A stretch of DNA of 61,853 nt from Bacillota bacterium (GCA_014360055.1 JACIYH010000004.1:1-61853), one strand, 5' to 3'. Positions 1 to 32,375 are shown, counted from the first letter of the stretch. The notes: generated from the sequence alone by a model not told the origin. A program made the numbers and translations.

Positions 1-1172
1 CGCTTTGCTGTGGCGAGCAGGGCGAGCCCGACCCCTAGGGCGATCGCGGTCGGCCAGGCGTTACCGGTGATGATAAGGAAGAGCGGTGCCACACCAAGTC
101 CTGCACCGCCTATAGCCTTCAGGTGGCGGTATCGCCTTTTCACCCGAGCGTTTCGCTCGAGCAGTTGCTCAAAGTGGGCCCGGGCACGTTCGAGTGCTGC
201 GCCGTCGAGCGCAAGCAATGATTCGCGCAGCGATTCCACCCAGGGTTGGCCGAAAAGCTTTTTGGCCAACTTGTTGAGGCCGTCCGTACATGCCTCAAGG
301 CGACTGTTAATGGTCGAGATCTCACCGTATACCTTGTTTAGCTCGCCCTGGTACTCGAGGGCGAGGGGCTGTGTTGTCAGCAGGTCCTGGCAGTACCCGG
401 AATACTCATCGATACGCCGTTGGGCCTCTCGTAACTCCTCGAACAACTCCTCCCGGGTTGCCCTCAGCCGCGCCACCTCTTGTTGAATCTGGGCGACTTC
501 CGATAGCAGTTCTGTTTGCCTGTGCAGTCGAACCAGGTTTTCAGTGAGTTGCATGTAGCTGTCGCAAAGCTTGAGTAGATGCTGGTATTCTGAGATCTTG
601 TTCTCCACAGCTTCGAGTTTGCGTCGGACTGCCCCTACCCGCTCGGCATCTTGGCGCCATTGTGCCAGAGCTGCCGTGACCTCTTTCTCCCCCGTAAGGC
701 CTTGGCTCACGAGTGCTTTCCAACACACCTCGCGGAAATACTCGGGGAGACACGAATCGGGGACTGCGCCGTGGAGGAGGATGGGTCCTACGTAAGCAAA
801 CCCGGGGTCATCTGGCACGGTGAGGAGATTGTACTCAGATAACGTTGTAACGAACAATCGACCCCACTCGGACTGGTACTCTACCTCTGGCACGCCGGTT
901 GCGCGGTGCACTGATGACCAAAAAACGCCCTCGCGATATCCGCGGATACCTTGCCACACCAGGAACATCGCGAACGACAACGGAGTCTTGTGTATGAGCG
1001 ACTGGGTTGCCAGGCGCGGATCCCGCTGGAAGCACCGGTGCACCTGGGTATCCAGCCACGTGACGTCCTCTTCTGATAGTGGGATCTCGCCGAGCAGGTT
1101 TACGCCGTGCGTGGTGACGAAATCCCTGATCCGCGCCTCAGATTCCCCCAGGTTCCGGCAGCCTTCGAGCAT
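1..1172 (-). CDS. hypothetical coiled-coil protein with C-terminal transmembrane segment(s); 3' end runs off the window
   Basis: Hand translation of the minus strand is stop-free from 1400 down to position 1. It is absent from the ORF track because it has no in-window stop. The first ATG is at 1172 (MLEGCRNLGESEARIRDF...). A long coiled-coil-like stretch (..RKLEAVENKISEYQHLLKL..LHRQTELLSEVAQIQQEVARLRATREELFEELREAQRRIDEY..) is followed by hydrophobic AIGGAGLGVAPLFLIITGNAWPTAIALGVGLALLA at the edge. The start codon is uncertain. Confidence 0.6.
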   Translation of the reverse strand, partial: MLEGCRNLGESEARIRDFVTTHGVNLLGEIPLSEEDVTWLDTQVHRCFQRDPRLATQSLIHKTPLSFAMFLVWQGIRGYREGVFWSSVHRATGVPEVEYQSEWGRLFVTTLSEYNLLTVPDDPGFAYVGPILLHGAVPDSCLPEYFREVCWKALVSQGLTGEKEVTAALAQWRQDAERVGAVRRKLEAVENKISEYQHLLKLCDSYMQLTENLVRLHRQTELLSEVAQIQQEVARLRATREELFEELREAQRRIDEYSGYCQDLLTTQPLALEYQGELNKVYGEISTINSRLEACTDGLNKLAKKLFGQPWVESLRESLLALDGAALERARAHFEQLLERNARVKRRYRHLKAIGGAGLGVAPLFLIITGNAWPTAIALGVGLALLATAK

Positions 1173-1400
1173 CAGGTGGTCACCGCCACTCGGGAACTCC
1201 TCGACCCGGCGTCCCGGCCGGGCGGTCGGCCGGGCACCGCGTGGTCGGGCAAAGTGCTTGGTAGGCCGGGAGCACAGGGCAGAAGATCGTATGGTGAACG
1301 GCGCCAGGGCGAACTTTACGTAGAATATTACGACGCCAGGGGGCGACCTTCCTGGTCCGTCACTGGGTGGCGTACCACCATTTGACTGGCGGGGGGTGCC

Positions 1401-3536
1401 CTAGCTGGGGGCGGCGTTCTTCAGGGTGACGTATACGGTGTAGCCTGGTCCCTTCTTCTTGGGCCTTTTGTCCCTCGTCCAAGCTCCCTTGCCGAACAGG
1501 GTGTCCAGCACCTGCGGCATCAGGCGGTAGGCCTCGTGGTCTTTATCCACTACGTGGTCGGGCAAAACCCGCTCGATCTCAACCTGTATTCCCTTCCAGG
1601 GGTGGCCCTGGGTGCGCACCCTCTCGGGCAGGTCTGTTTCCTGGATACGCTTGACCGCCTCTTCCACCCAAAGCTTCTGGGTATCCACCGGCGCCGTACC
1701 GGTTGTCTCGGCGCCCTCCCCTTCCTCGGAATCGGGCGCTGGCCCGGTGTGGTGGCCGGGGATGGACGCGAGTCGCGTCGCGAAGGTAGCGCGAAGTTGG
1801 GCGGCGTAGGTCGGTGCTGCGGGCCTGGTGTAGGTGGGGTCGGCGGCGGTGTACATCTTTTCGAAAGGCATCACGCGGAGGGAGACGGGGTAGCTCTTGC
1901 CGCCCGCGCTGCTCCAGAAGACGCAGTGGCCGGGGATGGGCTCGTTGAGCAGCGCGCTCAGGATGTCGTCGCTGAAGTGGGCGTTCGCCTTCTTCAGGGC
2001 GAGGAGGTCGCCGGTCGAGAGCAGGTGGAAGACGAACCAGTTGTCCCCCTGGCTCAGTATCTCGTGGGGGATGCTGCCCGGCTGCTGGGTGATGAGGACG
2101 GCGCCCAGGTCGTACTTACGGCCCTCCTTCACCCAGGTGACGTAAGGGGCGTAGCCGGAGGTCCCGCCGGAGGAGCCCAGCACCGCCTGGGCCTCCTCCA
2201 CCACGGCGATGACGGGGATGGTCTCGGGGTCGGCGCGGGTGAACTGCTCCTGATTGTAGTCGAAGATCCGCTGCAGGATGAGCGCCGAGAGGATGAGTCC
2301 CGCCTGCCCGCGCATCTGGGAGAGGTCCACGATGCAGAGTTTGCCGGCCTTGAGGGAGTTGATGAGCATGTCCAGCATCTGGCTCCCGGGGTCGTGCAGC
2401 ATCTTGACGATGGTGGTCATGTTGGCTCGCGCCGCCGCCATTTCTGCCTCTTGCGTCTTCTCCAGGTGGAGGAGTTCGCAGATGATGGCGGGGTCGGCCA
2501 TGTTGCCCTGGGCGTAGATTTCGTCCACCAGGCGGCTCCAGTCCGAGTCGTTCAGTTGCTTCAACCTGCGCACGTTCTGCTGGTCCTGCTTCTCGGGTGG
2601 CAGGGCAATGGAGACCACGTCCGCGGGGCGGAGCCTGCGGATGTCCAGCCTGATGTCGCTGGCGACGAAGGAGTCGTAGAAGGGGCTGGGGCCACTGCGG
2701 TTGGTGAAGAGGACGAGCTTGTCTTCCAGGTGTGGTACGTCGCACAGGCCAGGGCGGTTCTGGTCGTCCGGCCAGAAGTACTCGCCCTCCGGGTCGAAGA
2801 TGATGGTCCCCACGGGGGCCCTGCGCCCGCCGCGTTTCTGGACCGTCGGGGTATCCCGGTAGAGGCTGCTGAAGAGGAGCTTGGTGAGGTTGGATTTGCC
2901 GAAGCCGGCCCGGGCGAACACGAAGGTCCGGCGCGACACCAGACCCCGGATGTCGAACTTGGGGGTGACCCTGGGGTGCCTGATCTGCATCCAGTCCTCC
3001 ACGGTGATCAGCGGCTGCCCCCCGTTGACGTCGTCTCCCGCAAAGATGTACTCGCCCAGGGCCAGGTAGCCCAGCTCGGCGCCGGGGAGGTTGTGGCCGG
3101 CCACCTCCCGCAGCACGTCTTCCGCCAGGAAGGCCACCTTGCTGCCCAGATGGGGGAGGCGGCGGTGGGAGGCGGCGAAGACGAGGCGGTCACCTACCAC
3201 CCGCACCACTCCCAGCACCCGTATGTTGATGCGGTACTTCAGGTAGCGCTCGCGCAGTTCCTCCGGTATGGGGCGGTCCTCGGCTACCGCCCTCACCCCG
3301 TAGTCTTCGCCCTCGCTTGAGGTCAGGCGACCTTCGGCGGAGATGGAGCAGATCCTGCCCAGCACGGCTTCGCTCTCGGTTTCCAGTTGCACCACCACGA
3401 ACTGGCCGTGCATGGGGCTGTTCTGGTAGTCCTCCCGGTAGGGCAGGACCAGGTCGGCGTGGAATTCCAGGCCGCCTTCGCTGAACCCCCGGAAGATGCC
3501 CGCCACCTGTTCCCTGCGGAATAGCTTCAGGCTCAT
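1401..3536 (-). CDS. HerA-like (FtsK/HerA superfamily) ATPase with an extra C-terminal domain
   Basis: 711 aa ORF. Walker A is FARAGFGKSNLTKLL; the Walker B-like motif is PVIAVVEEAQAVLG, as in HerA (hhhhEEAH). An N-terminal barrel-like region precedes the ATPase. Its ATG overlaps the stop of the upstream NurA-like gene (ATGA at 3533-3536). Confidence 0.8.
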   Translation of the reverse strand: MSLKLFRREQVAGIFRGFSEGGLEFHADLVLPYREDYQNSPMHGQFVVVQLETESEAVLGRICSISAEGRLTSSEGEDYGVRAVAEDRPIPEELRERYLKYRINIRVLGVVRVVGDRLVFAASHRRLPHLGSKVAFLAEDVLREVAGHNLPGAELGYLALGEYIFAGDDVNGGQPLITVEDWMQIRHPRVTPKFDIRGLVSRRTFVFARAGFGKSNLTKLLFSSLYRDTPTVQKRGGRRAPVGTIIFDPEGEYFWPDDQNRPGLCDVPHLEDKLVLFTNRSGPSPFYDSFVASDIRLDIRRLRPADVVSIALPPEKQDQQNVRRLKQLNDSDWSRLVDEIYAQGNMADPAIICELLHLEKTQEAEMAAARANMTTIVKMLHDPGSQMLDMLINSLKAGKLCIVDLSQMRGQAGLILSALILQRIFDYNQEQFTRADPETIPVIAVVEEAQAVLGSSGGTSGYAPYVTWVKEGRKYDLGAVLITQQPGSIPHEILSQGDNWFVFHLLSTGDLLALKKANAHFSDDILSALLNEPIPGHCVFWSSAGGKSYPVSLRVMPFEKMYTAADPTYTRPAAPTYAAQLRATFATRLASIPGHHTGPAPDSEEGEGAETTGTAPVDTQKLWVEEAVKRIQETDLPERVRTQGHPWKGIQVEIERVLPDHVVDKDHEAYRLMPQVLDTLFGKGAWTRDKRPKKKGPGYTVYVTLKNAAPS

Positions 3537-4696
3537 GACGCACCTCCCATGCCGACCTCGGGGTGAAGTCGGGCCTCATCCAGGATCCCCCGCTTGTCGG
3601 GGGGTAGCAGGTCGCGCACTGCCTGGTAGATCTCGTCTTGCAGGATGGTGAGGTCGAAGCCGGTCACCTGGGCGTACTCGTGGGCTTTCTGCAGGCACCG
3701 CGGGTAGAGGGGCACGGGGAAGCCCGCGATGGCGTCCGCCAGCAGATACCCGAATATCTCGCCTGCGCTCTCGCTCTGGGAGGAGAAGACGTCTATCGTC
3801 CAGATGGGGTCTCCCGGTCGGGATCCAAAGCGCACGAAGTACATGTCGCCGGCGACGAACTTGGGCGCCTCGCGTTCGCCGCCTTCGGCCTCGGGCCCGC
3901 GAGCCCACTCGGGCCAGACGAAAGCCTTTGCCTCCATCTCTCTGGGCACGCGCACGTAGCAGGGTTCATCACGGAGCATCACACCCTCGATGGCCAGGGC
4001 CAGGCGGTAGCGCTCCAGCACCTTGCTGCGCTTGGCGATTCCCACCAGGTAGATGCGCCGCCGCTGCGTCCGCCAGACCCTCTCGATCGCTTCCTCTATC
4101 TTCTGGCGCCACCTGATGAACAGCTCCCCGCGGAATACCTTGCTGCGCAGCATCCCGTCCCGCACGATGAGGGTATCCGTGGCGAAGGAGTGGTTGCGGA
4201 TGCGGTCGTAGAGGACCGCCCACTCGCACAGGTCGCGGTAGACCTGAATCCATGAGGGCGAAACCATTTCCGGGTGCTCCCTGATCATGCTCGCCCGGGG
4301 GATCATGGGGCTCAGATTCCACAGCAGGGGCGGATCCACTCCCAGTTCGGTCATCATGACCCCCAGCGCGGTTTTCGGCTTTCCGTCGGGGGTGAACTGG
4401 GCCCGGCTCAGGGCTTCCGTGTCCGTGGTGGGGGAGACGCATTCGATGTGGTGCTCCTGCCCGTAGGAGTCGACCACGCGCACGAACTGCATGAAGAAGG
4501 GGTCGAACAGGAGCCGGTTGTTTCCCCCATCACTTCCCACCAGCGAGACCGCCGTGGTCGACCGGGGCCGTATGGGTTTGACGTTCCCGGCCAGGGGGCG
4601 CACCTCGCGGCACAGGTCGTCCAGCACCCTGCGGTCTTCCTCCGCCCGGCGGGCGATCAGCTCGCGCACCTGCCTCAGGGTTTCCGGTTCCAGCAT
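3533..4696 (-). CDS. NurA-like nuclease
   Basis: NurA-type motifs: LVGSDGGNNRL (catalytic Asp region), IYLVGIAKRSKV and YFVRFG. I place the start at ATG 4696 (MLEPETLRQVREL), 2 nt after the methyltransferase stop. The 471 aa version in the ORF track (to 4948) overlaps the methyltransferase by 250 nt and is Arg/Pro-rich filler. Confidence 0.7.
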   Translation of the reverse strand: MLEPETLRQVRELIARRAEEDRRVLDDLCREVRPLAGNVKPIRPRSTTAVSLVGSDGGNNRLLFDPFFMQFVRVVDSYGQEHHIECVSPTTDTEALSRAQFTPDGKPKTALGVMMTELGVDPPLLWNLSPMIPRASMIREHPEMVSPSWIQVYRDLCEWAVLYDRIRNHSFATDTLIVRDGMLRSKVFRGELFIRWRQKIEEAIERVWRTQRRRIYLVGIAKRSKVLERYRLALAIEGVMLRDEPCYVRVPREMEAKAFVWPEWARGPEAEGGEREAPKFVAGDMYFVRFGSRPGDPIWTIDVFSSQSESAGEIFGYLLADAIAGFPVPLYPRCLQKAHEYAQVTGFDLTILQDEIYQAVRDLLPPDKRGILDEARLHPEVGMGGAS

Positions 4697-4698
4697 GG

Positions 4699-5919
4699 CT
4701 ACGCCTCCAGTTGGGCCACCAGGTCTATCTCTTCGACGGCGGTTCCCGCCCTGCCGAATTGCTCCGCCTGCCGCTTCCCCCGGGTCGAGGGCCCGGCGCT
4801 GCGAACTTCTCTGATGGCCCAGCCGCAGTCGGCGAGGGCGAGGGTTCTCATCAGGACTTCGGCCCCGCTGTACCGGGCGCTGGGTATGCACCCGAAGCGC
4901 ACCACCAGGCGGGCCCCCGGTGCGCAGAGCCGGGACACGGCCCGCCACACCTCGGCCAGGGCAGCCGCGAAGGCGTCACCCCTCAGTTGTCCGATCTGAC
5001 CTTCATATGAATAATCGACGTTGGGGGGTCCGCCCAGGAACCAGTTGCGCAGCCACTGGTCGGGTACGTAGTTCCGCATCTGCATGTAAGGTGGCGAGGT
5101 CACCACCCAGCGGAACCGCTCGGGGAAAACGTGCTCGTCGAGCCTCCTGCTGTCGTCCTCCATTATCCACCCGGGGGTGCGCGGCGGTATGGTCGCGAAG
5201 AACCGGTGCGCGCGCCGGGATACGACCTCCAGAAGGCTGACCCTGGGCGGCTTCAGCCCGCGCTTGAGCCAGAAGTTGATGGCGCTGTTCGGCTTGGTCG
5301 CATACGTACGGGGCATCTGGTTGGAGAGGTAACCAGCCCCGTTTTTCTGCAAGGGTCCGTGCAGGGCGCCCAGCATAATGGCCCGCAGGGCAATCTGCGG
5401 CGCGGTGACACATTCTCGCAATAGGGCTTCGCGCACCTTGCACATTTCGGCCAGCGTGTCCGGGTGGTAGCACAAATCCCAGAAGGGGCCCGTGGGAACG
5501 TCTACCGGGTCAGCGCCGCCCTGCAGGATGCGCGCACACAGGGCGGTGACCTCCTCGGGGGTGACCTGCACCATCTTTGCTGCCGCGATGGCCACGGCCA
5601 CGCGGCACCGGTCGACCCCCACCGAGGGCAGGCCGAGCAACCTCGCAGCGTAGTTGGTGGTCCCCCGGCCGCAAAAGGGGTCGAGCACCCACTCGCCCGG
5701 TCCTGCCTGGCTCAGGTGGGCCAGTGGGAAATCCAGGGGGAACATGGAGAAATAGGGGCAAATACCGTTCAGGCGGAGCATCTCCGCGGGGAAGCCCGCC
5801 ACGCGGTCCTCCTCGGGTTCTCCATGTGCTACGTGTTGTCCCATGTTGTTTCCTGTGTCGCTTGCCGCGTTGTTTGTTGTATTGGCATCCGCAGGCTGAC
5901 AGCAGTTGCAGGCCGCCAC
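4699..5919 (-). CDS. DNA methyltransferase (N6-adenine/N4-cytosine type)
   Basis: SAM-binding motif I is LDPFCGRGTTNYAARLLG near the N-terminus. Catalytic motif IV is VVTSPPYMQMRNY about 190 aa later, so a variable region lies between them (alpha-like order). An alternative start is ATG 5844 (MGQHVAHG). Confidence 0.8.
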   Translation of the reverse strand: MAACNCCQPADANTTNNAASDTGNNMGQHVAHGEPEEDRVAGFPAEMLRLNGICPYFSMFPLDFPLAHLSQAGPGEWVLDPFCGRGTTNYAARLLGLPSVGVDRCRVAVAIAAAKMVQVTPEEVTALCARILQGGADPVDVPTGPFWDLCYHPDTLAEMCKVREALLRECVTAPQIALRAIMLGALHGPLQKNGAGYLSNQMPRTYATKPNSAINFWLKRGLKPPRVSLLEVVSRRAHRFFATIPPRTPGWIMEDDSRRLDEHVFPERFRWVVTSPPYMQMRNYVPDQWLRNWFLGGPPNVDYSYEGQIGQLRGDAFAAALAEVWRAVSRLCAPGARLVVRFGCIPSARYSGAEVLMRTLALADCGWAIREVRSAGPSTRGKRQAEQFGRAGTAVEEIDLVAQLEA

Positions 5920-6337
5920 TGTCCTCTCCCCATCACTCAGCCATCTGCCGTCTTTCTCTCGCCCCGGCTGACGACCGCGCGCGAAGCCCCTACCACATCA
6001 TGCGGCTACCGCGTACCCCAGATGCCCCAGTTTGTCGCAGGATTGGTAACCCATTGCGCTATCTGAAGAGTACCAAACCTGGAACACCTTATCAACGGTA
6101 CCACCGGTCGACTACCACCGGTCAGGTGTGGCGGCCGCGCCGAGGCGCCAAAGGGGTACGTCCGCCAACCGTGGCGGAGTAGGAGGAACGGGTGATAGTG
6201 TCGTACACGTCACGGTGGGAGGCCTTGCCACTGCGTTCCCCATGACCTTGTTCCGGCAATACGGGGGATGGACCTGGGGTGACCTGGGCTTCGCGATACT
6301 CGGAGTTCGCCGGCCCTCACCTCCGAAAGCCTGAGTG

Positions 6338-6354
6338 ACACGGTTAAACCGTGT
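6338..6354. promoter_or_regulatory. perfect 8+1+8 palindrome ACACGGTT-A-AACCGTGT upstream of the NERD gene
   Basis: Read directly from the sequence. It lies 20 nt upstream of the longest start (6375) of the NERD ORF, in the divergent intergenic region shared with the methyltransferase operon. Operator function is inferred only. Confidence 0.3.
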
Positions 6355-6374
6355 AAAGCCTGGGATAGCTCAGC

Positions 6375-7127
6375 GTGGGCGTCGTACGAGGCGAGCCGGA
6401 GGTGCAAGTGTTGCCAGCACGGGTGATCCACCAGAGCGACCGAATGAGGCAGCTGTTTCGCGAGAGGATCAGGCAGAAGGTGGAGCGCGAAAAGGAGCGC
6501 ATGAAGCAGCAGATAGACGAGGATGCCCCGTGGTGGATATCGTGGGCGGTCAAGCCACTGGCGGCCTACACGTTCGACCGGGAGCGCGCCCGGGACGCGG
6601 CGGTGGGGCGGGCGGGCGAGCGCCGCGCCTCGCTTAGTTTCTGGTTGCTCCTCCCCCCCTCGTGGGTGGTTATTCACGACGCAGTACTCGAGCCCGAGCC
6701 GGAAGAGTTCATCCAGATCGACCACCTGCTGGTCGGGCCGCCGGGTGTCTGCCTGGTGGAGACCAAGTCGTGGGAAGGAGCCTTCCTGTGCCGCGGGGAC
6801 CGCTGGCTGCGCAAGGATGGTGGCAGGTGGGTGCCTTGCAAGAGCCCCACCGCGCAGAGTCTCCGTCACGCCCGCCTTTTCCGCCGATGGGTGGCGACCA
6901 CCCTCGGGGACCGGGTTCCCGCCGGGGAATGGGTCCACCCCGTGATCCTGTTGAACGGTGCCAGCTGGCTCCGCGTGGAGGGCAGTAGCGTGCCGGTATT
7001 TGAGAGTGGAACCGCTCTGGCATGGCACCTGCGCAGGCAGACCCGTGACGCCATCCTGACTCCGGCGCAGGTCAACATGGTGGCAGAGGCCGTGGCCAAC
7101 GCCGGGCCGTGCGACCGCCGCGCCTGA
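6375..7127 (+). CDS. NERD (nuclease-related domain) protein
   Basis: The core EEFIQIDHLLVGPPGVCLVETKSWEG matches the NERD D...(hhh)E.K signature. The start is uncertain (GTG 6375 or ATG 6444). Confidence 0.65.
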   Translation: MGVVRGEPEVQVLPARVIHQSDRMRQLFRERIRQKVEREKERMKQQIDEDAPWWISWAVKPLAAYTFDRERARDAAVGRAGERRASLSFWLLLPPSWVVIHDAVLEPEPEEFIQIDHLLVGPPGVCLVETKSWEGAFLCRGDRWLRKDGGRWVPCKSPTAQSLRHARLFRRWVATTLGDRVPAGEWVHPVILLNGASWLRVEGSSVPVFESGTALAWHLRRQTRDAILTPAQVNMVAEAVANAGPCDRRA

Positions 7128-7150
7128 GATAAACGGCAGGGGGGATTTAC

Positions 7151-7930
7151 ATGAGCGGTCGCTATTTCGGTGCGGACGGGTGTGCCGGTGGTTGGGCGCT
7201 GGTGGAGTTGGTTGACGGCAGGCCGGTCATGCACCTTTTCGTCGCGGAGTTCGCAGGTGTCCTCCAGCGCACCAGAGATGCCCGCCTCGTGCTCGTCGAC
7301 ATCCCCATCGGGTTAGCGGATGCAGCCCGCGGGGAGCGCCGGTGCGACGTGCTCGCCAGGAAAGTACTCGGGGACCGGGGGAGCTGCATTTTCCCGGCTC
7401 CTATCCGCGAGGTAGTGGATCTGCCCGAACGGTGTACTCAGGCGGAAGCCTCAGCGCGCCAGCGTCAGCTCACTGGGCGCGGGCTCACCATGCAGGCGTA
7501 CTGCCTGCTTCCGAAGATACGCGAAGTGGACAGCCTCATGCGGCAGAACCCCCGGCTGCAGGAGACCGTGCGGGAAAGCCACCCTGAACTCTGCTTCGCA
7601 GCCCTGAATGGCGGGAACCCTGTGGAGCGCGGCAAGCTGAGCCGGGAAGGACGCCGCGAGAGGCTCGCGGCGCTGAGTCGCTACGTCCCGGCCGTGGACG
7701 CGTTCATCGCTGGGGTGCCCCGGAGCAAGAGGCGGGGGAGTGCCGCCGCCGATGACGTGCTGGACGCCCTGGCCCTTGCCGTCAACGCCTGGCTCGGCAG
7801 CGAGCACGGCTTCCGAGTGCTGCCCGACGAGGGGGAGGAACTGGACCGGTACGGGCTGCGCATGGAGATGGTCACCGCCCGTCTGGATAGTGCCATCGCG
7901 GTCGGGGCGGCTGCCGCCACCCGTGGGTAG
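7151..7930 (+). CDS. DUF429-family protein (predicted RNase H-like nuclease fold)
   Basis: N-terminal YFGADGCAGGWALVEL followed by LVLVDIPIGL is typical of DUF429. It starts 24 nt after the NERD stop. Confidence 0.6.
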   Translation: MSGRYFGADGCAGGWALVELVDGRPVMHLFVAEFAGVLQRTRDARLVLVDIPIGLADAARGERRCDVLARKVLGDRGSCIFPAPIREVVDLPERCTQAEASARQRQLTGRGLTMQAYCLLPKIREVDSLMRQNPRLQETVRESHPELCFAALNGGNPVERGKLSREGRRERLAALSRYVPAVDAFIAGVPRSKRRGSAAADDVLDALALAVNAWLGSEHGFRVLPDEGEELDRYGLRMEMVTARLDSAIAVGAAAATRG

Positions 7931-11337: not shown

Positions 11338-11520
11338 CGACCGCGCGGACTATACGCCACGATGTCGGGGTGGACTGCGGACTATACGCCGTGATCCGCG
11401 CCCGACCGCGGACTACACGCCATGATGTCGGGGTGGACCGTGGACTATACGCCGTGATCCGCGCCCGACCGGGGACTATACGCCGCGATCGCGGGCCCAC
11501 CGCGGACCCTACGCCCGATC
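11338..11520. repeat. six phased GGACTAYACGCC boxes (a ~63 nt higher-order unit, three copies)
   Basis: Boxes start at about 11347, 11379, 11410, 11442, 11473 and 11504. The last is degenerate (GGACCCTACGCC). Spacing is 31-32 nt. Flanks alternate between ..acgatgtcggggt.. and ..gtgatccgcgcc.. . The array lies between the MBL gene stop and the SLH gene promoter region. Confidence 0.8.
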
Positions 11521-13248: not shown

Positions 13249-13505
13249 TGAACTTCACCGGGGAGTTCTTCACCCACCCGATTGATCGCCAAGGACTACC
13301 TGCCTGGTGTGGAGCGCTCTGCTGGCCGTCGTGGCCGTGGCAGTACGGGGCCCCGAGAGACTTTCTCCCGGGCTCACACGCTGGCTTCCAGGCAAGGGGC
13401 CGGGCCCTTGACTCGCCCCACGGGCGGTGCTGTGATAATATGGTGCAAGCGCCGTTGGCGCCAGACGGGAGGTGTGTGGGGATGCGTGCGGTGGAACCAG
13501 CTGAC

Positions 13506-13691
13506 ATGGCGAACGGTGGGAAGGTCAGGACCTCGCACGTCGAAGTGGTGTTTTCCGCAGGTTGGCACCGGGAGGCGTGGCGCACCGACCTGCCGCGCGA
13601 GTGCCAGGAGTGCCAGACGTCCTGCCAGTCGGCCTGCAAGACTTCCTGCACGGTGAGCAACCAGCCCTGTCCGCTGGATGATGCCCGTTAG
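13506..13691 (+). CDS. scfA: SCIFF (six-cysteines-in-forty-five) ribosomal peptide precursor
   Basis: The C-terminus ECQECQTSCQSACKTSCTVSNQPC matches the SCIFF core as I recall it (GCGECQTSCQSACKTSCTVGNQ). It is hidden in the last third of the 13128..13691 ORF and lies directly upstream of the SPASM radical-SAM gene. The start is uncertain (ATG 13482, ATG 13506, or a later in-frame GTG). Confidence 0.8.
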   Translation: MANGGKVRTSHVEVVFSAGWHREAWRTDLPRECQECQTSCQSACKTSCTVSNQPCPLDDAR

Positions 13692-13723
13692 CCGGCCACG
13701 CCGCCGGTTGGGAATCGCTGACC

Positions 13724-15271
13724 GTGTCCGATTTGGGAGCTAGTGAGGTGGCCGGTCCGGGAGCACATAAGGTGTCCGACCCGGTAGCCCAGGGGGTCGG
13801 CCTGCGAGTCGGTGACGCCGCGGGGGGACGGCGGCATAGCCTGCCCCCCCGTGTGCACAGGTTTGAGTTACACGGGGTCAAGCTCGCCTTCGACGCGGGT
13901 AGTGGCACGCTGCTGGAACTGGACCAGGCGGCCTGGCGGGTGCTGGGCGACTATCTCGCGCAAGGGCCGGAGGCGCCCGCGCTTCGCTCCCCGATGCCGG
14001 GGATGCTGACCGCCGCCGAGGAAGAGGCCCGCCGGGAACTGGACCGCCTGCGCGAGTCGGGGGTTTTGCTTTCTCCGGTGACGCTACCGGCGCGACCGGA
14101 ACCGGTGTTGAAAGCGCTCTGCCTGCACGTCGCGCACCGTTGCCAGATGAGTTGCTCGTACTGCTTCGCTTCCGGAGGGGACTACGGCCGGGCCGCCGGG
14201 TCGGGCCTCATGAGCCCGGCCACGGCCCGGGCGGCCGTGGACTTCCTGCTGGGATCCTCCCCCCGGGTCGGGCGGTGGGCTATGGACTTCTTCGGCGGCG
14301 AGCCGCTCCTCAACTGGCCGGTGGTGAGGGAGACCATCCTTTATGCCGAGAGGCGGGCTGCCTCCTTGGGAGGGCAGGTGCGCTTCACCCTGACCACCAA
14401 CGGGCTCGCCCTGACGCCGGCACGGCTGGCGTTCCTGGACCAGCACGGGGTGGACCTGATCGTCAGTGTGGACGGGCGGCCTGCCGTCCACGACGCCGTC
14501 CGCCGGACGATCTCCGGCCGGCCCACCTGGAGCAGGGCGGTCAGGGCTGCCCGGCTGGCCACGTCCACCCGCCTGCTCGACGTGTGCGGCGGCGCCGCCG
14601 TCGGGCCCGGGGGCGGCGGACAGGACCGGTCGGGTGATGAGCGCCCCGTGCGCGGCGCGCGGGCGGGGCCCACGGTGTGGATACGCGGGACCTTCACCCG
14701 GCGCAATCTGGACTTCGCCCAGGATGCCCTCTTCCTTTTCCATCTGGGCTTCTCGCGGGTTTCCCTGGAACCGGTGTGCGGCGGCCCTCCCGACCTGGCC
14801 CTGCGGCCTGAGGACGTCCCGTACCTGGCCGGCCAGTACGAGTTGCTGGCCCGCGAGTGCGCCGCGAACGGCTTCCGGTTCTACCACTTTGAGCTGGACC
14901 CGACCGGCGGGCCCTGCCTCAGCCGCAGGATGGCTGCCTGCGGGGCGGGCAACGAGTACCTGGCGGTGACGCCGGAAGGGGACCTGTACGTGTGTCACCA
15001 GCTGGTGGGCCAGGAGGAATTCCGGGTAGGGGACGTCTGGCACGGGATCACCCGGCCGGAGGTGGGCAGAAAACTTTGGCAGCATGACGTCTCCTCGGGC
15101 CAGTGTGCCGATTGTTGGGCACGGTTTTTGTGCGGGGGTGGTTGCCGGGCGGCGGCTTTCTTCGAGCACGGGGAGGTGGGGAGGCCTCCCTCGCTGGAAT
15201 GCGCGTTGCAGAAGAAACGTTGGGAGTGCGCCCTGTGGCTCGCCGCCCGGCGCCGCGGCCGGCCCGGTTGA
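13724..15271 (+). CDS. scfB: SCIFF radical SAM/SPASM maturase
   Basis: Radical-SAM CxxxCxxC (HRCQMSCSYCFASG). C-terminal SPASM-type Cys clusters (CGAGNEYLAVTPEGDLYVCH, CADCWARFLCGGGCRA). Position next to scfA. The true start may be GTG 13853 (VHRFELHG..). It contains a Gly/Arg-rich insert. Confidence 0.8.
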   Translation: MSDLGASEVAGPGAHKVSDPVAQGVGLRVGDAAGGRRHSLPPRVHRFELHGVKLAFDAGSGTLLELDQAAWRVLGDYLAQGPEAPALRSPMPGMLTAAEEEARRELDRLRESGVLLSPVTLPARPEPVLKALCLHVAHRCQMSCSYCFASGGDYGRAAGSGLMSPATARAAVDFLLGSSPRVGRWAMDFFGGEPLLNWPVVRETILYAERRAASLGGQVRFTLTTNGLALTPARLAFLDQHGVDLIVSVDGRPAVHDAVRRTISGRPTWSRAVRAARLATSTRLLDVCGGAAVGPGGGGQDRSGDERPVRGARAGPTVWIRGTFTRRNLDFAQDALFLFHLGFSRVSLEPVCGGPPDLALRPEDVPYLAGQYELLARECAANGFRFYHFELDPTGGPCLSRRMAACGAGNEYLAVTPEGDLYVCHQLVGQEEFRVGDVWHGITRPEVGRKLWQHDVSSGQCADCWARFLCGGGCRAAAFFEHGEVGRPPSLECALQKKRWECALWLAARRRGRPG

Positions 15272-15289
15272 CCCCCCCGCCCACGGGGG

Positions 15290-15706
15290 CGGGTGGAGGC
15301 GCCCCCTGTGCGGTCGCGAACCGCCGCGCCTATCCCCGCGCGGCCCGCCTATGGGCCATGCGCCCGTCGGCGGGCTATCGGGCAGGCGGCAAAGGTACGC
15401 CAGGAGGAGGACGGGCCGCTCGGGATACTCGTGGTAGACCGCTGCGAGGACGTCCTCCACCTGCACCTCGAGGCCCAATTCTTCCCTCAATTCCCGGGCC
15501 AGGCACGTCTCGGGACTTTCGCCGGGTTCCAGTTTGCCACCGGGGAACTCCCACTGGCCCGCGAGGGGTCCCGACGCCCGGCGGGCGATGAGTACAGTGT
15601 CACCCCTGCGGACGACGCCTGCGGTGACGATCAGCGGATAACCGTCCCGGCCCACACCATGACCGTACCCGACCCCGCGATTCCCCTGCTCCCCGTGCGC
15701 GGGCAT
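15290..15706 (-). pseudogene. NUDIX (MutT-like) hydrolase, 3' end unresolved or lost
   Basis: NUDIX box GGKLEPGESPETCLARELREELGLE. After ..LLAYLCRL the frame continues as Pro/Gly/Arg filler with no stop until 14084, running antisense through scfB. The other two frames stop within about 45 nt. The lower coordinate is approximate. Confidence 0.5.
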
Positions 15707-16089
15707 GACTGCGCCCTCGCCCCCCTTCGGCTGCATCCCGTCAGCTACCCGGCACCTCCGTCCGGCCGACCCCGCCTCCTCGTTCCCCGGTGACTCGGAC
15801 CCGTCATGCTGCGTGGGACCTCCGTCCGGATGACGCCGCTTCCTGTTGCCCGGTGCCCGTCGTACCTCATGGCACCTCCGTCCGGTCTGGCCCCACTGCC
15901 TGTTTCTTCAGCAACTCCCCCATCCCCTGGTGGCCGAGAGCGATGGGAATGCGCCCACCCGGCGGCCGCAACCCGACCTCCCGTCACCATAGTGTGGGCC
16001 GATTTAGCGGTTGGTTCGCCGGTCAGGGGAGCCGGGAGGAGACGGGGTACCTGCCAGAGAAACCGAGACCCGACGAGGGGGCGAGCAGC

Positions 16090-17040
16090 ATGAGGCCGAG
16101 CACGTTTTCCATAGTGGGGTATGATCCCGTGCGGCAGGAGTGGGGCGTGGCAGTGGCCTCCAAGTTCCTGGCCGCGGGGGCGGTGGTCATGCATGCGCAG
16201 GCCGGGGCAGGGGCGGTGGCTACGCAGGCCCACGCCAATGTGAGCTACGGGCCCCGGGGGCTGGAGTTGATGGGCGGGGGTGTCCCGGCCCAAGAGACGG
16301 TGCGCCAACTGACGGGGGCCGACGAGGAACGCCACCTCCGCCAACTGGGGGTGGTCGATGCCTGCGGCCGCAGTGCCACCTTCACCGGGGAGGGGTGCAT
16401 CCCCTGGGCGGGAGGCATCGCGGGCGAGGGCTTTGCCTGCCAGGGCAACATCCTGGCGGGCGAGCAGGTGGTGCGGGCCATGGCCGACGCGTTCGTGACC
16501 GCCTCGGGTCCCCTGGCCCGGCGCCTGCACGCGGCCCTGCTGGCGGGCGACCGTGCGGGCGGCGACCGCCGCGGCAGGCAATCGGCGGGCATCCTGGTGG
16601 TACGTGCCGGAGGTGGTTATGGCGGCCTCAGCGACCGCTACATGGACCTGCGCGTGGACGACCACCCCGATCCCGTGGTGGAACTGGGGCGTCTCATCGA
16701 TTTGCACGATCTCTACTTCTTGCCCCCAGCACCCGAGGACATCCTCCCCCTCGATGAGGCGCTCATCACGGAGATCCAGCATGCTCTCGCCAGGCTCCGC
16801 TATTGGGATGGCCCGGTGGACGGGCGCTGGACGCCGGAACTGGAAGCGGCGCTGTCCACCTATGAGGGTGTGGAGAACCTGGAGGAGAGGCACCGGCGGG
16901 GACCCGAGATCGACCGTAAGGTGCTGGCTCACCTCCGTAGGCACGCGCAGCAGGCACGGGAGCGGCAGGGAGTTGCGCCCGGCGGCACCGACGCGGGCGG
17001 CCCGGGTGGCCCAGGTTGCGGGCCTACCTGGAGGACTTGA
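16090..17040 (+). CDS. DUF1028 (Ntn-hydrolase-like) protein with a peptidoglycan-binding-like C-terminus
   Basis: MRPSTFSIVGYDP..WGVAVASKFLAAG..QGNIL is typical of DUF1028. The C-terminus has YWDGPVDGRWTPELEAAL. I start it at ATG 16090; the upstream part of the tracked ORF is filler. Confidence 0.65.
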   Translation: MRPSTFSIVGYDPVRQEWGVAVASKFLAAGAVVMHAQAGAGAVATQAHANVSYGPRGLELMGGGVPAQETVRQLTGADEERHLRQLGVVDACGRSATFTGEGCIPWAGGIAGEGFACQGNILAGEQVVRAMADAFVTASGPLARRLHAALLAGDRAGGDRRGRQSAGILVVRAGGGYGGLSDRYMDLRVDDHPDPVVELGRLIDLHDLYFLPPAPEDILPLDEALITEIQHALARLRYWDGPVDGRWTPELEAALSTYEGVENLEERHRRGPEIDRKVLAHLRRHAQQARERQGVAPGGTDAGGPGGPGCGPTWRT

Positions 17041-17052
17041 GGGGGAGGGCCA

Positions 17053-17508
17053 CTAGCGGGGGACGAAAGTGACGCGGATGTTGGTGTAATACAACTGGGT
17101 CAGTCCCTCGAACCCGGAGTCGGTCCCTATCACGACCCAGGCTTCCGCCCGGTCGCCGGTCGTTATCTCACATTCGTGCTGGAAGGACTTGTACTCGTAC
17201 GAATCGTCCTGGGAGCCGGTCTTTTCGATATTGCCCAGTACGACCGGGGCGTTGCCGCCCCCGGCCTGGTTTCCCTTATCGAAGCTGACCCGGTAGTACC
17301 CGTCCCCGCCGACCGCGGGCGCCGGGTCGGAGGTGACTACGCCTGCCTTGACGTATACGCTGCCCCCCAGGGAACCCCCGATTCCGATCAGGCCCGGCGC
17401 CACGTTGGTGGCCAGGTCGAAAGACAGCCTGACCGTGTAGGTGGTGCGCCGCTTTAACCCGTCCTCTTTGCCGAATTTCCTGGCGATGAACATGAAGAGG
17501 TCTGCCAT
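17053..17508 (-). CDS. hypothetical protein
   Basis: Coding-like, non-filler composition (MADLFMFIARKFGKEDGLKRRTTYTVRLSFDL...YYTNIRVTFVPR). I recognise no family. Confidence 0.4.
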   Translation of the reverse strand: MADLFMFIARKFGKEDGLKRRTTYTVRLSFDLATNVAPGLIGIGGSLGGSVYVKAGVVTSDPAPAVGGDGYYRVSFDKGNQAGGGNAPVVLGNIEKTGSQDDSYEYKSFQHECEITTGDRAEAWVVIGTDSGFEGLTQLYYTNIRVTFVPR

Positions 17509-17607
17509 CCCTCGGGCCCGTTGCTGAAGTGTAAGGTGACTTCCAGCGGTTTGGTTCCACACCGAGGGTGTTGCCCCCCCCTGAGAAGGGGGGTTTTCGC
17601 CGCCTGC

Positions 17608-18606
17608 TTACCGGAGGCGCGAGGGAAAACCCTTATTGTGGGGTGCACCCAGGTAGCGCTCGACCGCCCTGGCCACTTCCCTCCCCGATGCCAGCCTCTT
17701 GATCAGGGGTTGGCCGTCCACACAGACTCCGCGGGTCAATCCGTACTCCTGCACCACCGCCCGCTCGTCGGTGTTGACCAGGCGCACTTCCACGTCGAAT
17801 TGCCCCAGAGCTCTCACGGCGCCGTCGATCATCCAGCCCGACCAGGGACACTGGCTGCTGTGCAGTACTTCCACCACATGACGGGTGGCCGGCACCACCC
17901 TCCTCGTGCGCGGACGTATCAGGGAGGGTCTGCGAGCACCACCCGGGTCCGGACGGACGGAGGGCCCACCGATACCCGGGTCCGGACGGACGGAGGGCCG
18001 ACCGACACCCAGGTCCGGATGGACGGAGGGCCTACCAGTACCACCCAGGTCGAGATGGAGGAGTACCCGGCTGCCGTCCCTGTCAACTTCCGAAAACCCC
18101 CATCTCTTGAAGAACCTCACAGGCATGTACGGGAAGTAGCCGAACCACTTGTCCCTCTCGTACCCAAGTAGGGTGATGCCACCGTACGGGTGCGGTGACG
18201 ATGGCGCCGACGGCGACGGTGACGATTGCGGAGACGACGACGGTGACGATGACGGCAACGGCAGGGACGATGACGGGGGCGACGGCGGCGGGTCGAGGGT
18301 GTCGCGGGCGCGCGCGATAACGTGTTCCATCAGCGCTCTGGCCACGCCAGTCTTCCAGTAGCGGGGCAGGACCCAGAGGCAGTTGATGAAGAGGCAGCCC
18401 TCGCCGTTGACGGGTTCCGCTGCCCATTCGATGGGAACGTATTCCATTAGGCCCTGCTTCTCGCCCTCCTCCCCAAGGGCGATGGCCACGCGCAGGCCCC
18501 TATCCACCATACGCTGGAGCCACGCCTTTCTCTGCTCCATGTAAGGTGTCATGACCCGGAGCATCCTGGGAGGGTCATCGGGATGGAGGCAGAGCCCTTC
18601 CACCAA
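17608..18606 (-). CDS. GNAT acetyltransferase with YoaP-like C-terminal domain, interrupted by repeat inserts
   Basis: GNAT-like segment ..FINCLWVLPRYWKTGVARALMEHV.. . C-terminal thioredoxin-like segment EVLHSSQCPWSGWMIDGA..VNTDERAVVQEYGLTRGVCVDG, like YoaP as I recall it. It carries a Ser/Pro-rich insert and a GRPSV(H/R)PD(L/P)G triple repeat. Confidence 0.5.
   Translation of the reverse strand: MVEGLCLHPDDPPRMLRVMTPYMEQRKAWLQRMVDRGLRVAIALGEEGEKQGLMEYVPIEWAAEPVNGEGCLFINCLWVLPRYWKTGVARALMEHVIARARDTLDPPPSPPSSSLPLPSSSPSSSPQSSPSPSAPSSPHPYGGITLLGYERDKWFGYFPYMPVRFFKRWGFSEVDRDGSRVLLHLDLGGTGRPSVHPDLGVGRPSVRPDPGIGGPSVRPDPGGARRPSLIRPRTRRVVPATRHVVEVLHSSQCPWSGWMIDGAVRALGQFDVEVRLVNTDERAVVQEYGLTRGVCVDGQPLIKRLASGREVARAVERYLGAPHNKGFPSRLR
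17941..18055. repeat. 33-nt in-frame tandem repeat (about 3.4 copies) inside the GNAT/YoaP gene
   Basis: The unit acccgggtccggacggacggagggcccaccgat starts at 17941, 17974 and 18007, with a partial copy at 18043. Confidence 0.8.
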
Positions 18607-18670
18607 CTATGGGTTGTCTCCCGAAAACTCTACGATGCGGACGGTCATCGTGGTTCACCCCGCGACCGCG

Positions 18671-19134
18671 CTAGCGGCGGCGTTGCTCGAGTTCCAGGCG
18701 CATCGGGTTGTGAGCGATGTCGTCGGTCGTCGGCCGGACCTCGTCTGGTCCCGGGCGGCGCGCCATGTCCTCCTGGAAGGGGAACTGGACGATCACCACC
18801 GTGTGGCATGATGGCTTGGCGGCCCGGGCGGCCTGCAGGGTGAAAAAGCCCATAGTGCCCGCCCCGAAGACGAGGACGCGCTCGCCCGGCCGGGGAGCGC
18901 GGCCGGGGCGATCCCGAGATCGCCTCGCCCGAATGCGAGGTGCAGCTCGCTGCCGCAGATGCCACAGGCGCGGTTGCGCATCCTGACCCAGTTCGGGCCG
19001 GGTAGGGGCGGTGGCGGGACGTCCGCCACACGGACTAGACCCAGGCGGCTGAAGTAGATGGAAGGGAATACCCTTCCCAGGAGTCGCGTGGCCACCAGGG
19101 AAGCGGGACGGAACTCTACATAGGCGGTCTTCAC
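18671..19134 (-). pseudogene. zinc-type alcohol dehydrogenase (MDR) remnant
   Basis: One frame gives the N-terminus MKTAYVEF...PGPNWVRMRNRACGICGSELH. Another frame gives the NAD-binding GERVLVFGAGTMGFFTLQAARAAK. About 90 aa that normally separate these are missing, and the frames differ. Confidence 0.6.
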
Positions 19135-19346
19135 CGTCTTGTCCTCCGCGGTCCGCCGGGGCCGTGGCCACGGTGCCTGCTGCCTGCGTCCGCTTGTACC
19201 TCGCCAGAGGCGAACCGTTTCGCTGGACAGCTACTTCGACGCAGGCGTGCCATTTCCTGCCGGGCCGGCTGCGGGGAGGAGACCACCCGGAGAGCCATAG
19301 AGCCTGTATGGAGCGGCACCGAGTGCCGGACAGGGGCTGGTGAGTG

Positions 19347-19450
19347 CCGCATGAGGGCTGCCCGGCAGCTGGCGACGGCCGCATGAGGGCTGCCCGGCAG
19401 CTGGCGACGGCCGCATGAGGGCTGCCCGGCAGTGAATCAAGGCCGCATGG
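19347..19450. repeat. 32-nt tandem repeat (about 3.2 copies), each unit with a small palindrome
   Basis: The unit ccgcatgagggctgcccggcagctggcgacgg starts at 19347, 19379 and 19411, with a partial copy at 19443. Each unit contains gctgc-ccg-gcagc. Confidence 0.8.
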
Positions 19451-19754
19451 AGTTGCCACCGTCAAAGCGCGTATACTGCGCGAGTTCCTCGAAACGTTTC
19501 GGCCCGTGCCGACTCGGGCGAGATGTTTACCTTCGCCGCCGGGTCAAGTTCCCGCCCCCGCCGGCGACGCGTGGAACACTAGGTATGCTGCTGCGTCAGG
19601 ACAGGTGGTTGGGTCCGGACGTGCCGGGTGGCTGCGGCCCGAGCGTGGGGCCGGGGCCAGAGTGTGTGGCTGCGGCCAGGGCGGGGTGACTGTGGCCAGG
19701 GCGGGTGGCTGCCGCCAGGTCGGCGTGGCCAGGGCGGGGGGTTGCGGGGCAGCT

Positions 19755-20642
19755 ATGGAGATTCCGTCAGCGCGTTGGTACCGTGCCATAGGAGAGAGAC
19801 ACAGCCGTCGGCGCTTTGAGCCGCGCCCGGTTGAGCCGGCGCTGCTTGCACGCCTGGTGGCCGTTTGCGAGGGGTTCCGCCCGTATGACGAAGCGCGGGC
19901 AGTGCTGGTGGCACGGCCAGCGGACGAGGTCTTGAGGGGCGTGGTCGGTAGCTATGGGCAGGTCAAGGGGGCACCTGCCTACGCAGCACTGGTGGGAAGA
20001 ACGGACAGCCCGTACGTGCATGAACGGTTGGGGTATACCGGCGAGGCCGTGGTGCTGGAGGCCACCTCGCTCGGGCTGGGTACGTGCTGGGTGGGTGGCT
20101 TCTTCCGTCCTGAGGTGGCCGCCCGCCTGCTGGGTGTGGCTGCCGGGGAACGGGTGATGGCGGTCATACCGCTGGGCTACCCGGGCCCTCGCAGCCGGGA
20201 AGAGTCAATCATGAGCGGCTTTGTCCACTCGCACCGTCGCAAGCCGCTGGCGGAGCTCACGGCGCGCGGTGCCCCCGGCGCTGTCGACGATCCTGCCCGG
20301 TGGCCGGCGTGGGTGAGGGCAGCGCTGGAGGCGGCTCGGCTGGCGCCCTCGGCGATGAACCGTCAGCCCTGGCGGTTTGCGGTTAGCGCTGAGCCCGCCG
20401 CCGCTGACAGCCCGGCTGGTGTTGACGGCCCGGGCGGTGCTGAACGGCCGGCTGGGGCTGAGGGCCCGGTCTGGACGATCACCGTCGGGGTGGCCGGAGG
20501 GCGCCAGACAGGCGAGATCAGCAGGCGATTGGACTGCGGGATCGCTATGCTCCATCTGGAAGTCGCTGCCCTTGCGCACGGGGTGCGCGGAGCCTGGGAG
20601 CCACTGCCTCCGCCTGGTGTGGCCCGCTTTTGGCCCCGGTGA
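19755..20642 (+). CDS. nitroreductase family protein
   Basis: MEIPSARWYRAIGERHSRRRFEPRPV...GLGTCWVGGFF...APSAMNRQPWRF. I start it at ATG 19755; the upstream 83 codons are repeat filler. Confidence 0.7.
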   Translation: MEIPSARWYRAIGERHSRRRFEPRPVEPALLARLVAVCEGFRPYDEARAVLVARPADEVLRGVVGSYGQVKGAPAYAALVGRTDSPYVHERLGYTGEAVVLEATSLGLGTCWVGGFFRPEVAARLLGVAAGERVMAVIPLGYPGPRSREESIMSGFVHSHRRKPLAELTARGAPGAVDDPARWPAWVRAALEAARLAPSAMNRQPWRFAVSAEPAAADSPAGVDGPGGAERPAGAEGPVWTITVGVAGGRQTGEISRRLDCGIAMLHLEVAALAHGVRGAWEPLPPPGVARFWPR

Positions 20643-20678
20643 GGGTGAGCAGTGCTCCATGAGGGGGGGCTGGGCCGC

Positions 20679-32118: not shown

Positions 32119-32297
32119 CACCTGGGGCGCGACATCCTGTCGCGCATCATCTACGGCTCCGCATATCCCTCGCCGTGGGGTTGATGTCCGAGTTCATCGT
32201 TACCGTCATCGGGGTCACGGTGGGCCTTCTGGCCGGATACTGCGGCGGCTGGTTCGACAGCCTGGTGATGCTCGTGTGCGACATCCTCTTTGCTTCC
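32119..32297 (+). pseudogene. fragment of an Opp/Dpp-type ABC permease (OppC/DppC-like), frameshifted
   Basis: HLGRDILSRIIYGS, then after a 1-nt frame break ISLAVGLMSEFIVTVIGVTVGLLAGYCGGWFDSLVMLVCDILFAS. This matches the conserved OppC core (LGRD..SR..yG.R.SL..G...G...GyfGG..D...M). There is no N- or C-terminal remainder. Confidence 0.6.
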
Positions 32298-32375
32298 AGC
32301 CTGGTGATGCGTGTGTGCGACATCCTCTTTGCTTCCAGCCTGGTGATGCGTGTGTGCGACATCCTCTTTGCTTCC
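32259..32375. repeat. 39-nt tandem triplication of the end of the oppC fragment
   Basis: The unit agcctggtgatgcgtgtgtgcgacatcctctttgcttcc starts at 32259, 32298 and 32337. Confidence 0.85.

Follow-up and report, generated by a model that had tools for sequence, protein, structure and literature searches.

What does a DNA methyltransferase do in an operon with a NurA-like nuclease and a HerA-like ATPase? The question is raised by positions 1-5919 of a 61,853-nt stretch of DNA from a Bacillota bacterium (GCA_014360055.1 JACIYH010000004.1:1-61853), the whole of which is referred to here as the window. An earlier note on this DNA had proposed a methylation-guarded HerA/NurA defence system with a fourth, coiled-coil membrane component. 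Three genes on the minus strand form the core of the locus: a putative methyltransferase (MTase) lying in a maximal open reading frame (ORF) of 406 aa (4699..5919; Pfam N6_N4_Mtase), a TdpB-like/NurA-like nuclease of 387 aa with a predicted RNase H fold (3533..4696; matched to TdpB and, below threshold, to Pfam NurA), and a TdpA-like ATPase of 711 aa from the HerA/FtsK family of hexameric ATPases (1401..3536; Pfam DUF87/HerA). The latter two would be the restriction nuclease subunit and the translocase subunit, respectively. We consider it probable, at roughly 0.6, that this cassette is a modification-guarded, ATP-driven restriction system and a methylation-based sister of the TdpABC system.

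The genes are packed exactly as tightly as first described. The TAG stop codon of the MTase gene is separated from the nuclease start codon at 4696 by two nucleotides (GCG TAG CC ATG CTG), and the nuclease stop overlaps the ATPase start in an ATGA at 3533-3536. From the 2-nt gap and the 4-nt overlap we infer that the cassette is co-transcribed. A scan for promoters and terminators across 900-6500 gave no signal above shuffled expectation, and an exact-sequence lookup of the window ATPase returned no existing record.

The same three genes recur together well outside the window. One genome per species was scanned for 185,579 species, yielding 91 matches to the nuclease family (about 0.05% of species, a count limited by the search pattern), and 80 loci, spanning more than 15 phyla with archaea among them, were kept. 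ORFs were called in all loci and then clustered; among the 86 sources, which include the window and duplicate loci, the nuclease is present in 86, the ATPase in 83 and the MTase in 68. Other recurrent clusters were either antisense shadows of the cassette genes or lineage-specific neighbours, and a search beside the cassette for a conserved small ORF of the controller protein kind found none. The order MTase-nuclease-ATPase, with the MTase gene directly upstream of the nuclease gene, is seen in about 65 of the 80 loci. Locus L039 is the sole exception to this order; there the MTase follows the ATPase (nuclease-ATPase-MTase), hence the linkage survives rearrangement. Spacing was measured on 57 complete loci, in which the modal gap between MTase and nuclease is 2 nt and the nuclease and ATPase genes mostly overlap by 4 nt. 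Because both features recur in most of these loci and in other phyla, the tight packing is not a matter of chance. Pairwise identities of nuclease and ATPase are correlated with r=0.92, compared with 0.66 for nuclease and MTase and 0.75 for ATPase and MTase (Mantel p=0.001 for nuclease-ATPase and for nuclease-MTase). These gene comparisons show the MTase, nuclease and ATPase as one conserved, co-inherited and, to judge from the junctions, translationally coupled cassette with three genes and not four. The co-occurrence in a fixed order across genomes, which the earlier note had held up as a check on its proposal, is borne out.

Variable presence and a defence-island setting had been named as a further check. 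Across the species scanned the distribution is sporadic, and many of the neighbouring genes are defence genes, as detailed below. Nuclease sequences are 59-69% identical between Bacillota, Acidobacteriota, Planctomycetota, Bipolaricaulota and anaerobic methanotrophic (ANME)/Methanoperedens archaea. Such identity across phyla and archaea, in a family with 91 matches in 185,579 species genomes, is the signature of horizontal transfer, by which the cassette appears to have spread among both bacteria and archaea. The family is compact, with 476 representatives among 1.84 billion and more than 2,220 relatives in a collection of 5.8 billion proteins; about 2,000 contigs carry the nuclease. The nuclease has no match in 72,556 plasmids or 50,697 phages, and a search of plasmids only with the ATPase as query gave distant HerA-like matches. 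In two predicted viral contigs from IMG/VR (L087 4664-5242 and L088 2951-3529) the nuclease is represented by residues 1-193 only, at 58% identity; these truncated copies may be a fragment or host-derived flank.

The nuclease falls below the threshold of the Pfam NurA family (PF09376; 17.1 bits against a cutoff of 21, E=0.004) and has no match at all in the PADLOC and NCBIfam libraries. A profile of the family searched against the PDB matched a single protein, TdpB (E=4e-4). TdpB was also the top, and the one significant, Foldseek match of an AlphaFold2 (AF2) model of the nuclease (8wet_G/8wfd_G, E=3e-10, template modelling (TM) score about 0.6; mean predicted local distance difference test (pLDDT) of the model 80), followed by EndoV and the PIWI domain of Argonaute, and these last matches argue for an RNase H fold in the modelled protein. 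No canonical NurA structure was present among the 50 best fold matches. Profile comparison of the nuclease with TdpB by hhalign gave E=1e-6, and a tblastn search with TdpB as query recovers 16 of the cassette loci. Residues D56 (SDGGNN), E158, D180 (RDG) and H339 are invariant in the family; the GSDGG motif that had been pointed out in this protein, like the Walker A motif of the ATPase, is present.

The ATPase is matched by Pfam DUF87/HerA (E=1e-17). Its best match in the PDB is TdpA (8wet_A; 5e-19 with the single sequence and 4e-26 with a profile), compared with 5e-15 for an archaeal HerA structure. Alignment with TdpA by hhalign covers 422 columns at about 30% identity (probability 99.5%, E=1e-22). 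The Walker A (FARAGFGKSN, with K214) and Walker B (VVEEAQ, with E447 and E448) motifs are invariant, as are EGRKY and TQQPG. Beyond this core come an additional linker and a C-terminal domain of ~95 aa (residues ~615-711; window 1404-1700) with the conserved pattern PW...LP...FG..W.TEKRP...TTW; TdpA has no such domain. The best matches of this domain reached only E=0.4 in the PDB and 0.008 in Pfam, and we regard it as a candidate DNA-binding or mark-reading module.

The MTase matches Pfam N6_N4_Mtase (PF01555) with 34.8 bits, above the cutoff of 26.7, and the PADLOC model for Type II MTases (PDLC03325, MTase_II) over residues 73-345 (E=1e-14). Since homologues align only from residue 40-47 of the maximal ORF onward, the true start is probably not 5919 but GTG 5802, which has a GAGGAGG Shine-Dalgarno sequence ahead of it, or ATG 5781, giving a protein of about 360-367 aa. 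In an alignment of 25 sequences, DPFCGRG (motif I) and, further downstream, TSPPY (motif IV) are invariant, and between them lies an equally invariant insert, YLSNQMPRTY. The window protein thus has the motif I and (S/D/N)PP(Y/F) motif IV by which the amino-MTases of methylation-based restriction-modification (R-M) systems are generally recognised. SPPY is typical of N4-cytosine amino-methyltransferases. The invariant SPPY motif therefore suggests N4-methylcytosine as the product, with N6-methyladenine a possible alternative, and the invariance of DPFCGRG and TSPPY argues for active methyl transfer. An AF2 model of the MTase (pLDDT 85) gave only generic Rossmann MTases in Foldseek; for this reason DNA as the likely substrate rests on the PF01555 match and the PADLOC Type II MTase match. 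Catalytic motifs are invariant in MTase, nuclease and ATPase alike.

The parallel with TdpABC (PDB 8wet, 8wfd, 8y1k) extends from the individual proteins to the cassette as a whole. An et al. reportedly found in 2025 (in Nat Chem Biol) that phosphorothioate (PT) on self DNA blocks translocation and cleavage by TdpAB. According to PMC12914056, tdpABC is an R-M-like system based on PT, and a single gene, tdpC, is responsible for the mark. With the TdpA segment from the PDB match as query we recovered a metagenomic Tdp locus (L091), which contains a TdpA segment 100% identical to 8wet_A. Its genes encode, in order, a PAPS-reductase-domain protein, TdpB (375 aa, no Pfam match) and TdpA (586 aa), and the order is unchanged in each of the 16 further Tdp-like loci whose upstream region is preserved (17 counting L091), at identities as low as 40%. 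The succession of modification gene, nuclease and ATPase is that of the window and of the bulk of the 80 loci. The window ATPase and TdpA are homologous and have the GFGKSN of the Walker A motif in common; the two nucleases are likewise homologous, and neither has a Pfam assignment. The enzyme that makes the mark is where the systems part: a PAPS-reductase/PP-loop protein in Tdp, and in the window an S-adenosylmethionine-dependent methylase of the PF01555 type with SPPY. No similarity was detected between the window MTase and the TdpC-like protein of L091, and no TdpC-like gene is present in L001-L090 (90 loci). The window mark would also sit on a base, whereas that of Tdp is in the backbone, and the sensing of PT by the TdpA pore is therefore not directly transferable. 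Other differences are the ~125-150 extra C-terminal residues of the window ATPase and the range of hosts, Tdp being found in extremophilic bacteria and the cassette in many mesophilic phyla and in archaea. At 18-30% identity to Tdp the cassette family is a separate one. The gene comparison nevertheless shows a cassette isomorphic to Tdp, with ATPase and nuclease homologous to TdpA and TdpB and the marking enzyme apparently exchanged.

In the mechanism that we propose, the PF01555-type MTase would mark host DNA by methylation. The HerA/FtsK-type ATPase would form a ring that threads and translocates DNA, and the RNase-H-fold, NurA/TdpB-like nuclease docked on this ring would degrade it. Methylated self DNA would block loading, translocation or cleavage, and unmethylated phage or plasmid DNA would be destroyed. 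Candidates for the reader of the mark are the MTase, acting as a specificity subunit, the ATPase pore and the ATPase C-terminal domain. A DNA substrate, a self-protecting mark, a complex of ring plus dimer and protection against phage are all predictions of this model. A further claim falls a little short of even odds: the cassette may be the founding member of a distinct class of methylation-based R-M whose machinery, instead of the helicase and PD-(D/E)xK nuclease of Types I-III, is a HerA/FtsK-type ring translocase with an RNase-H-fold nuclease, and whose mark is read during threading or else by the MTase or the C-terminal domain. Such a class would occur across more than 15 bacterial and archaeal phyla, spread horizontally and missed by current defence-finding tools.

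Several observations weigh against a methylation-guarded restriction system. The methyl mark, the step in which it would be read and the restriction phenotype are all predicted from the genes. The similarity of the nuclease to TdpB is remote (18-26% identity, hhalign probability 91%). The Pfam match of the MTase spans the motif I region only, and its fold matches, with TM scores of 0.32-0.40 and including Trm11 and AviRa, do not separate DNA MTases from those acting on RNA or small molecules. Absence from plasmids and phages can be counted here too; it is neutral as regards defence but shows the family to be rare in cultured model hosts. An MTase of the window type is missing from 12-15 of the 80 loci, mostly an actinobacterial clade (44-47% identity) with some cyanobacteria, and at least 10 of these (10-12) retain intact nuclease and ATPase genes, so the nuclease-ATPase pair is not always lethal without such an MTase. 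When substitute modification genes were sought in these loci, an obvious one was present in L037 only, an Eco57I-type MTase; L046 has a generic class I methyltransferase, and the others have unrelated neighbours. The Eco57I-type enzyme suggests that the modification module is exchangeable. In this gammaproteobacterial locus (L037, 13575-16922), which lacks the usual MTase, a DUF4917 protein and the Eco57I/TaqI_C-type N6 methylase follow the ATPase. Finally, an operon of similar composition on an integrative and conjugative element (ICE) of Thermus acts in DNA donation (PMC5365140).

Two of these points lead to rival explanations. The MTase-less loci with intact nuclease and ATPase would fit a defence system whose methylase is not a simple self-marker but a recognition or sensor subunit like PglX of BREX, or one in which the nuclease-ATPase pair is cued by DNA ends, replication intermediates or phage proteins and methylation is regulatory or secondary. 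The looser co-variation of the MTase with its partners (r 0.66-0.75, against 0.92 for the pair itself) points the same way, as do the conserved extra C-terminal domain of the ATPase, absent in Tdp, and the lack of a controller protein or other small conserved ORF at the loci. We nonetheless think this explanation unlikely: the invariant DPFCGRG and TSPPY favour active methyl transfer, the isomorphic Tdp uses its modification as a self mark, and decay in which the ATPase goes first and the MTase is kept, described below, fits classical R-M logic. Slightly less likely again is a DNA-processing or export module of a mobile element, serving gene transfer or element maintenance rather than defence. 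Its model is the tdtA operon (TTC1877-1880) of the 14.9-kb ICEth1 of Thermus thermophilus, whose co-transcribed genes encode the type IIG enzyme Tth111II, a NurA-like protein (TTC1878, 377 aa), the HerA-like TdtA (TTC1879, 568 aa) and a PF01555 methylase (TTC1880, 410 aa); the nuclease and the ATPase push donor DNA out of the cell (transjugation), and in cells that lack the NurA-like gene or TdtA, donation is abolished or strongly reduced (PMC5365140). By this published description the operon resembles the cassette in combining a nuclease, a HerA/FtsK-family ATPase and an N4/N6 methylase, in having overlapping or near-overlapping genes and proteins of similar size, and in its mobile region. 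It differs in gene order (nuclease-ATPase-methylase), in the additional type IIG enzyme, in belonging to an active ICE and in its demonstrated role, which is DNA donation and not defence. Some cassette loci lean towards it: L039 has the tdtA-like order, L003 has an integrase directly upstream, and neighbouring genes occasionally encode an integrase or a transposase. Against this, integrases make up just 2-3 of 109 immediate neighbours, and the 80 loci show no recurrent conjugation, relaxase or type IIG gene beside the cassette. In the window no integrase was found within 16 kb of the cassette among the adjoining genes scanned (the fourth ORF, NERD, DUF429 and TPR genes), and the tRNA scan, like that with Rfam, gave no matches. 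The closest solved homologues, TdpA and TdpB, are defence proteins, and DNA fragments made by a restriction-type nuclease could account for the Thermus result as a side effect. The cassette bears on how the transjugation operon is read.

Two further readings, both put forward with the original proposal, now look very improbable. One is a housekeeping HerA-NurA pair for double-strand-break resection that lies beside an orphan methylase by chance. The archaeal and Deinococcus HerA-NurA systems do share with the cassette a HerA-family hexameric ATPase, an RNase-H-fold nuclease encoded just upstream and an acidic/His catalytic pattern; one database source labels a homologue 'DNA double-strand break repair nuclease NurA', and there are weak NCBIfam matches to repair HerA models (40-50 bits, against cutoffs of 800-970). 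In contrast to those systems, however, the cassette is never linked to mre11/rad50 in the 80 loci, its methylase is co-inherited, and it is not a core locus, being found at 91 matches among all species scanned with cross-domain identity near 60%. The nuclease scores too low for Pfam NurA and in structure comes closer to TdpB, with no canonical NurA in its top 50 fold matches, and a close relative has only a pseudogene for the ATPase. The other reading adds a fourth component, a coiled-coil membrane protein acting as sensor, anchor or effector. It derives from an ORF at 1-1172 on the minus strand, which runs off the window start and begins 228 nt past the ATPase gene; the part within the window comprises an N-terminal domain, a coiled coil and two hydrophobic/membrane segments, and Pfam returns coiled-coil noise only. 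Strand and frame are shared with the cassette, as had been remarked (3536-1172 = 2364 = 3 x 788), though the common frame has no significance. None of the other loci (80 genomes) contains a homologue. Only two were found in 5.8 billion proteins, neither adjoining such a cassette, and synteny with the close relative, 93-95% identical in nucleotide sequence, breaks off at position 1388, with other genes beyond. By its distribution this ORF is an independent, essentially orphan gene in a variable spot next to a defence cassette, and could itself be a defence gene of unknown type. The complete gene is seen in L089; its product of about 1,300 aa has a Cys-rich C-terminus in addition to the coiled coil and the two membrane segments, and a 588-aa ORF follows. 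The possibility that the ORF corresponds to the N-terminus of a 1,961-aa protein that follows the Calderihabitans cassette was also considered, and no similarity was found.

Of the original proposal, then, the methyltransferase-nuclease-ATPase core has been strengthened by the co-inherited three-gene unit, the defence context and the homology to TdpA and TdpB, and the fourth gene and the link to the NERD/DUF429 pair have fallen away. Its remark that it knew of no described system of this composition is outdated, since TdpABC (2025) is the direct analogue and the Thermus ICE operon has the same three-part composition.

A modification-guarded restriction machine has relatives among other known systems as well. 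Gao et al. reportedly described SIR2-HerA and DUF4297-HerA as anti-phage systems ('Her') in 2020, and their defence complexes, too, have a HerA-family ATPase as scaffold or motor. PADLOC HerA models match the C-terminal ATPase part of the window protein (E ~1e-17); scores against the NCBIfam anti-phage HerA models stay far below their cutoffs (NF042943, 53 bits against 800; NF042944, 22 bits against 850). The effector in the window is instead a NurA/TdpB-like nuclease accompanied by a modification gene, and Pfam and PADLOC found no SIR2 or DUF4297 effector in the cassette. With Type I and III R-M and with DndFGH/SspFGH the cassette would share the combination of a modification enzyme and an NTP-driven translocating nuclease that spares modified DNA. 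Its motor, however, is predicted to be a HerA/FtsK ring (DUF87) rather than a superfamily 2 helicase, its nuclease is RNase-H-like as opposed to PD-(D/E)xK or HNH, and it lacks a separate specificity subunit; Pfam and PADLOC revealed no ResIII or HsdR domain in the three proteins. Membership of the methylation-associated defence system (MADS), a set of eight genes (mad1-mad8), was rejected, as the ATPase matches mad8 only weakly, at the level of the P-loop (E=4e-8), the neighbouring NERD protein matches only the NERD part of MAD6, and the cassette genes have no matches to mad2 or other components.

A full-text literature search found no description of a defence system composed of an MTase, a NurA-like nuclease and a HerA-like ATPase. 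What is already known, from TdpABC, is a modification-guarded, HerA/NurA-like restriction machine, in which the cassette would swap the sulfur for a methyl marking enzyme. If confirmed, it would be a new architectural type of methylation-based R-M, built from an RNase-H-like nuclease, a motor of the ring-translocase kind and an uncommon methylase that probably forms N4-methylcytosine, and the HerA/NurA-like module of TdpABC would be a general chassis for different DNA-marking enzymes, whether sulfur or methyl. It would also raise the mechanistic question of how a pore-threading ATPase senses a methyl group on a base rather than sulfur in the backbone. Because PADLOC, NCBIfam and Pfam do not recognise the nuclease family, defence censuses miss the cassette, which is rare yet phylogenetically very broad and has been overlooked in Planctomycetota, Bacteroidota (clinical Elizabethkingia among them), methanotrophic archaea and other groups. 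Its cultured carriers include Calderihabitans maritimus, Desulfurispora thermophila, Sphingobacterium spiritivorum ATCC 33861, Elizabethkingia meningoseptica, E. miricola, Methylacidiphilum fumariolicum SolV and Methanolobus mangrovi.

The metagenome-assembled genome (MAG) of a closely related Bacillota bacterium (GCA_030019365.1, L086) provides a view of how the locus changes. Window positions 13725-1388 match it at 88-95% nucleotide identity, with 93% across the cassette, and synteny stops 13 nt past the ATPase stop. Different genes follow the ATPase stop in the two genomes, which marks this site as a swap hotspot. Past the break, L086 carries on the opposite strand (14463-21083) a metallo-beta-lactamase-fold gene, a DEAD/Cas3-like_C helicase and two BrxC/BrxD-family ATPases. 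Its own cassette ATPase is frameshifted near residue 440 and is a pseudogene, and the MTase is intact. In two Planctomycetota MAGs (L004/L005, 11143-13304) an IS1-family transposase gene cuts the ATPase after residue 325, with MTase and nuclease intact. Loss of the ATPase while the MTase is kept, seen in both cases, is a decay pattern typical of R-M.

Upstream of the cassette and divergent from it, on the plus strand, lie a NERD gene (6375-7127) and a DUF429 gene (7151-7930), both assigned by Pfam. These and the TPR gene are, like the fourth ORF, absent from all the other loci. L086 has a deletion corresponding to window 6483-7629, after which residues 1-33 of NERD and 148-259 of DUF429 remain; most of the former gene and the first half of the latter are gone.

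Among the other loci, cassette neighbours are often defence genes. They include type I, II and III methylases, GajB, a DRT reverse transcriptase-helicase and PD-Lambda-5_B, together with NERD+UvrD, an nSTAND-WD40 protein and a Schlafen-type helicase. In 10-11 loci of Bacteroidota, Septu PtuA (PADLOC E=4e-300) begins about 12-15 nt past the ATPase stop, with a 303-aa ORF after it (L051, L052, L056, L058, L059, L061-L063, L065 and L068, at ~13305-15940; Sphingobacterium, Elizabethkingia, Pedobacter, Mucilaginibacter and others), and here cassette and Septu may form a five-gene co-transcribed unit. In Calderihabitans maritimus (L001, 2851-20716) a DrmA-like helicase and DrmB lie just upstream of the cassette, DrmC and the DISARM methylase not being seen; the 1,961-aa protein mentioned above, which has an AAA_22 domain, and a 434-aa protein lie downstream, and the whole may be a hybrid or composite island.

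The window also contains many short tandem arrays, in which units of 31-39 bp are repeated 2-5 times with 90-100% matches; they lie at 11344-11515, 17940-18036, 19346-19432, 21998-22131, 32258-32375, 32921-33049 and 34757-34849. In the array at 11344-11515 the copies are arranged differently from those of the close relative L086.

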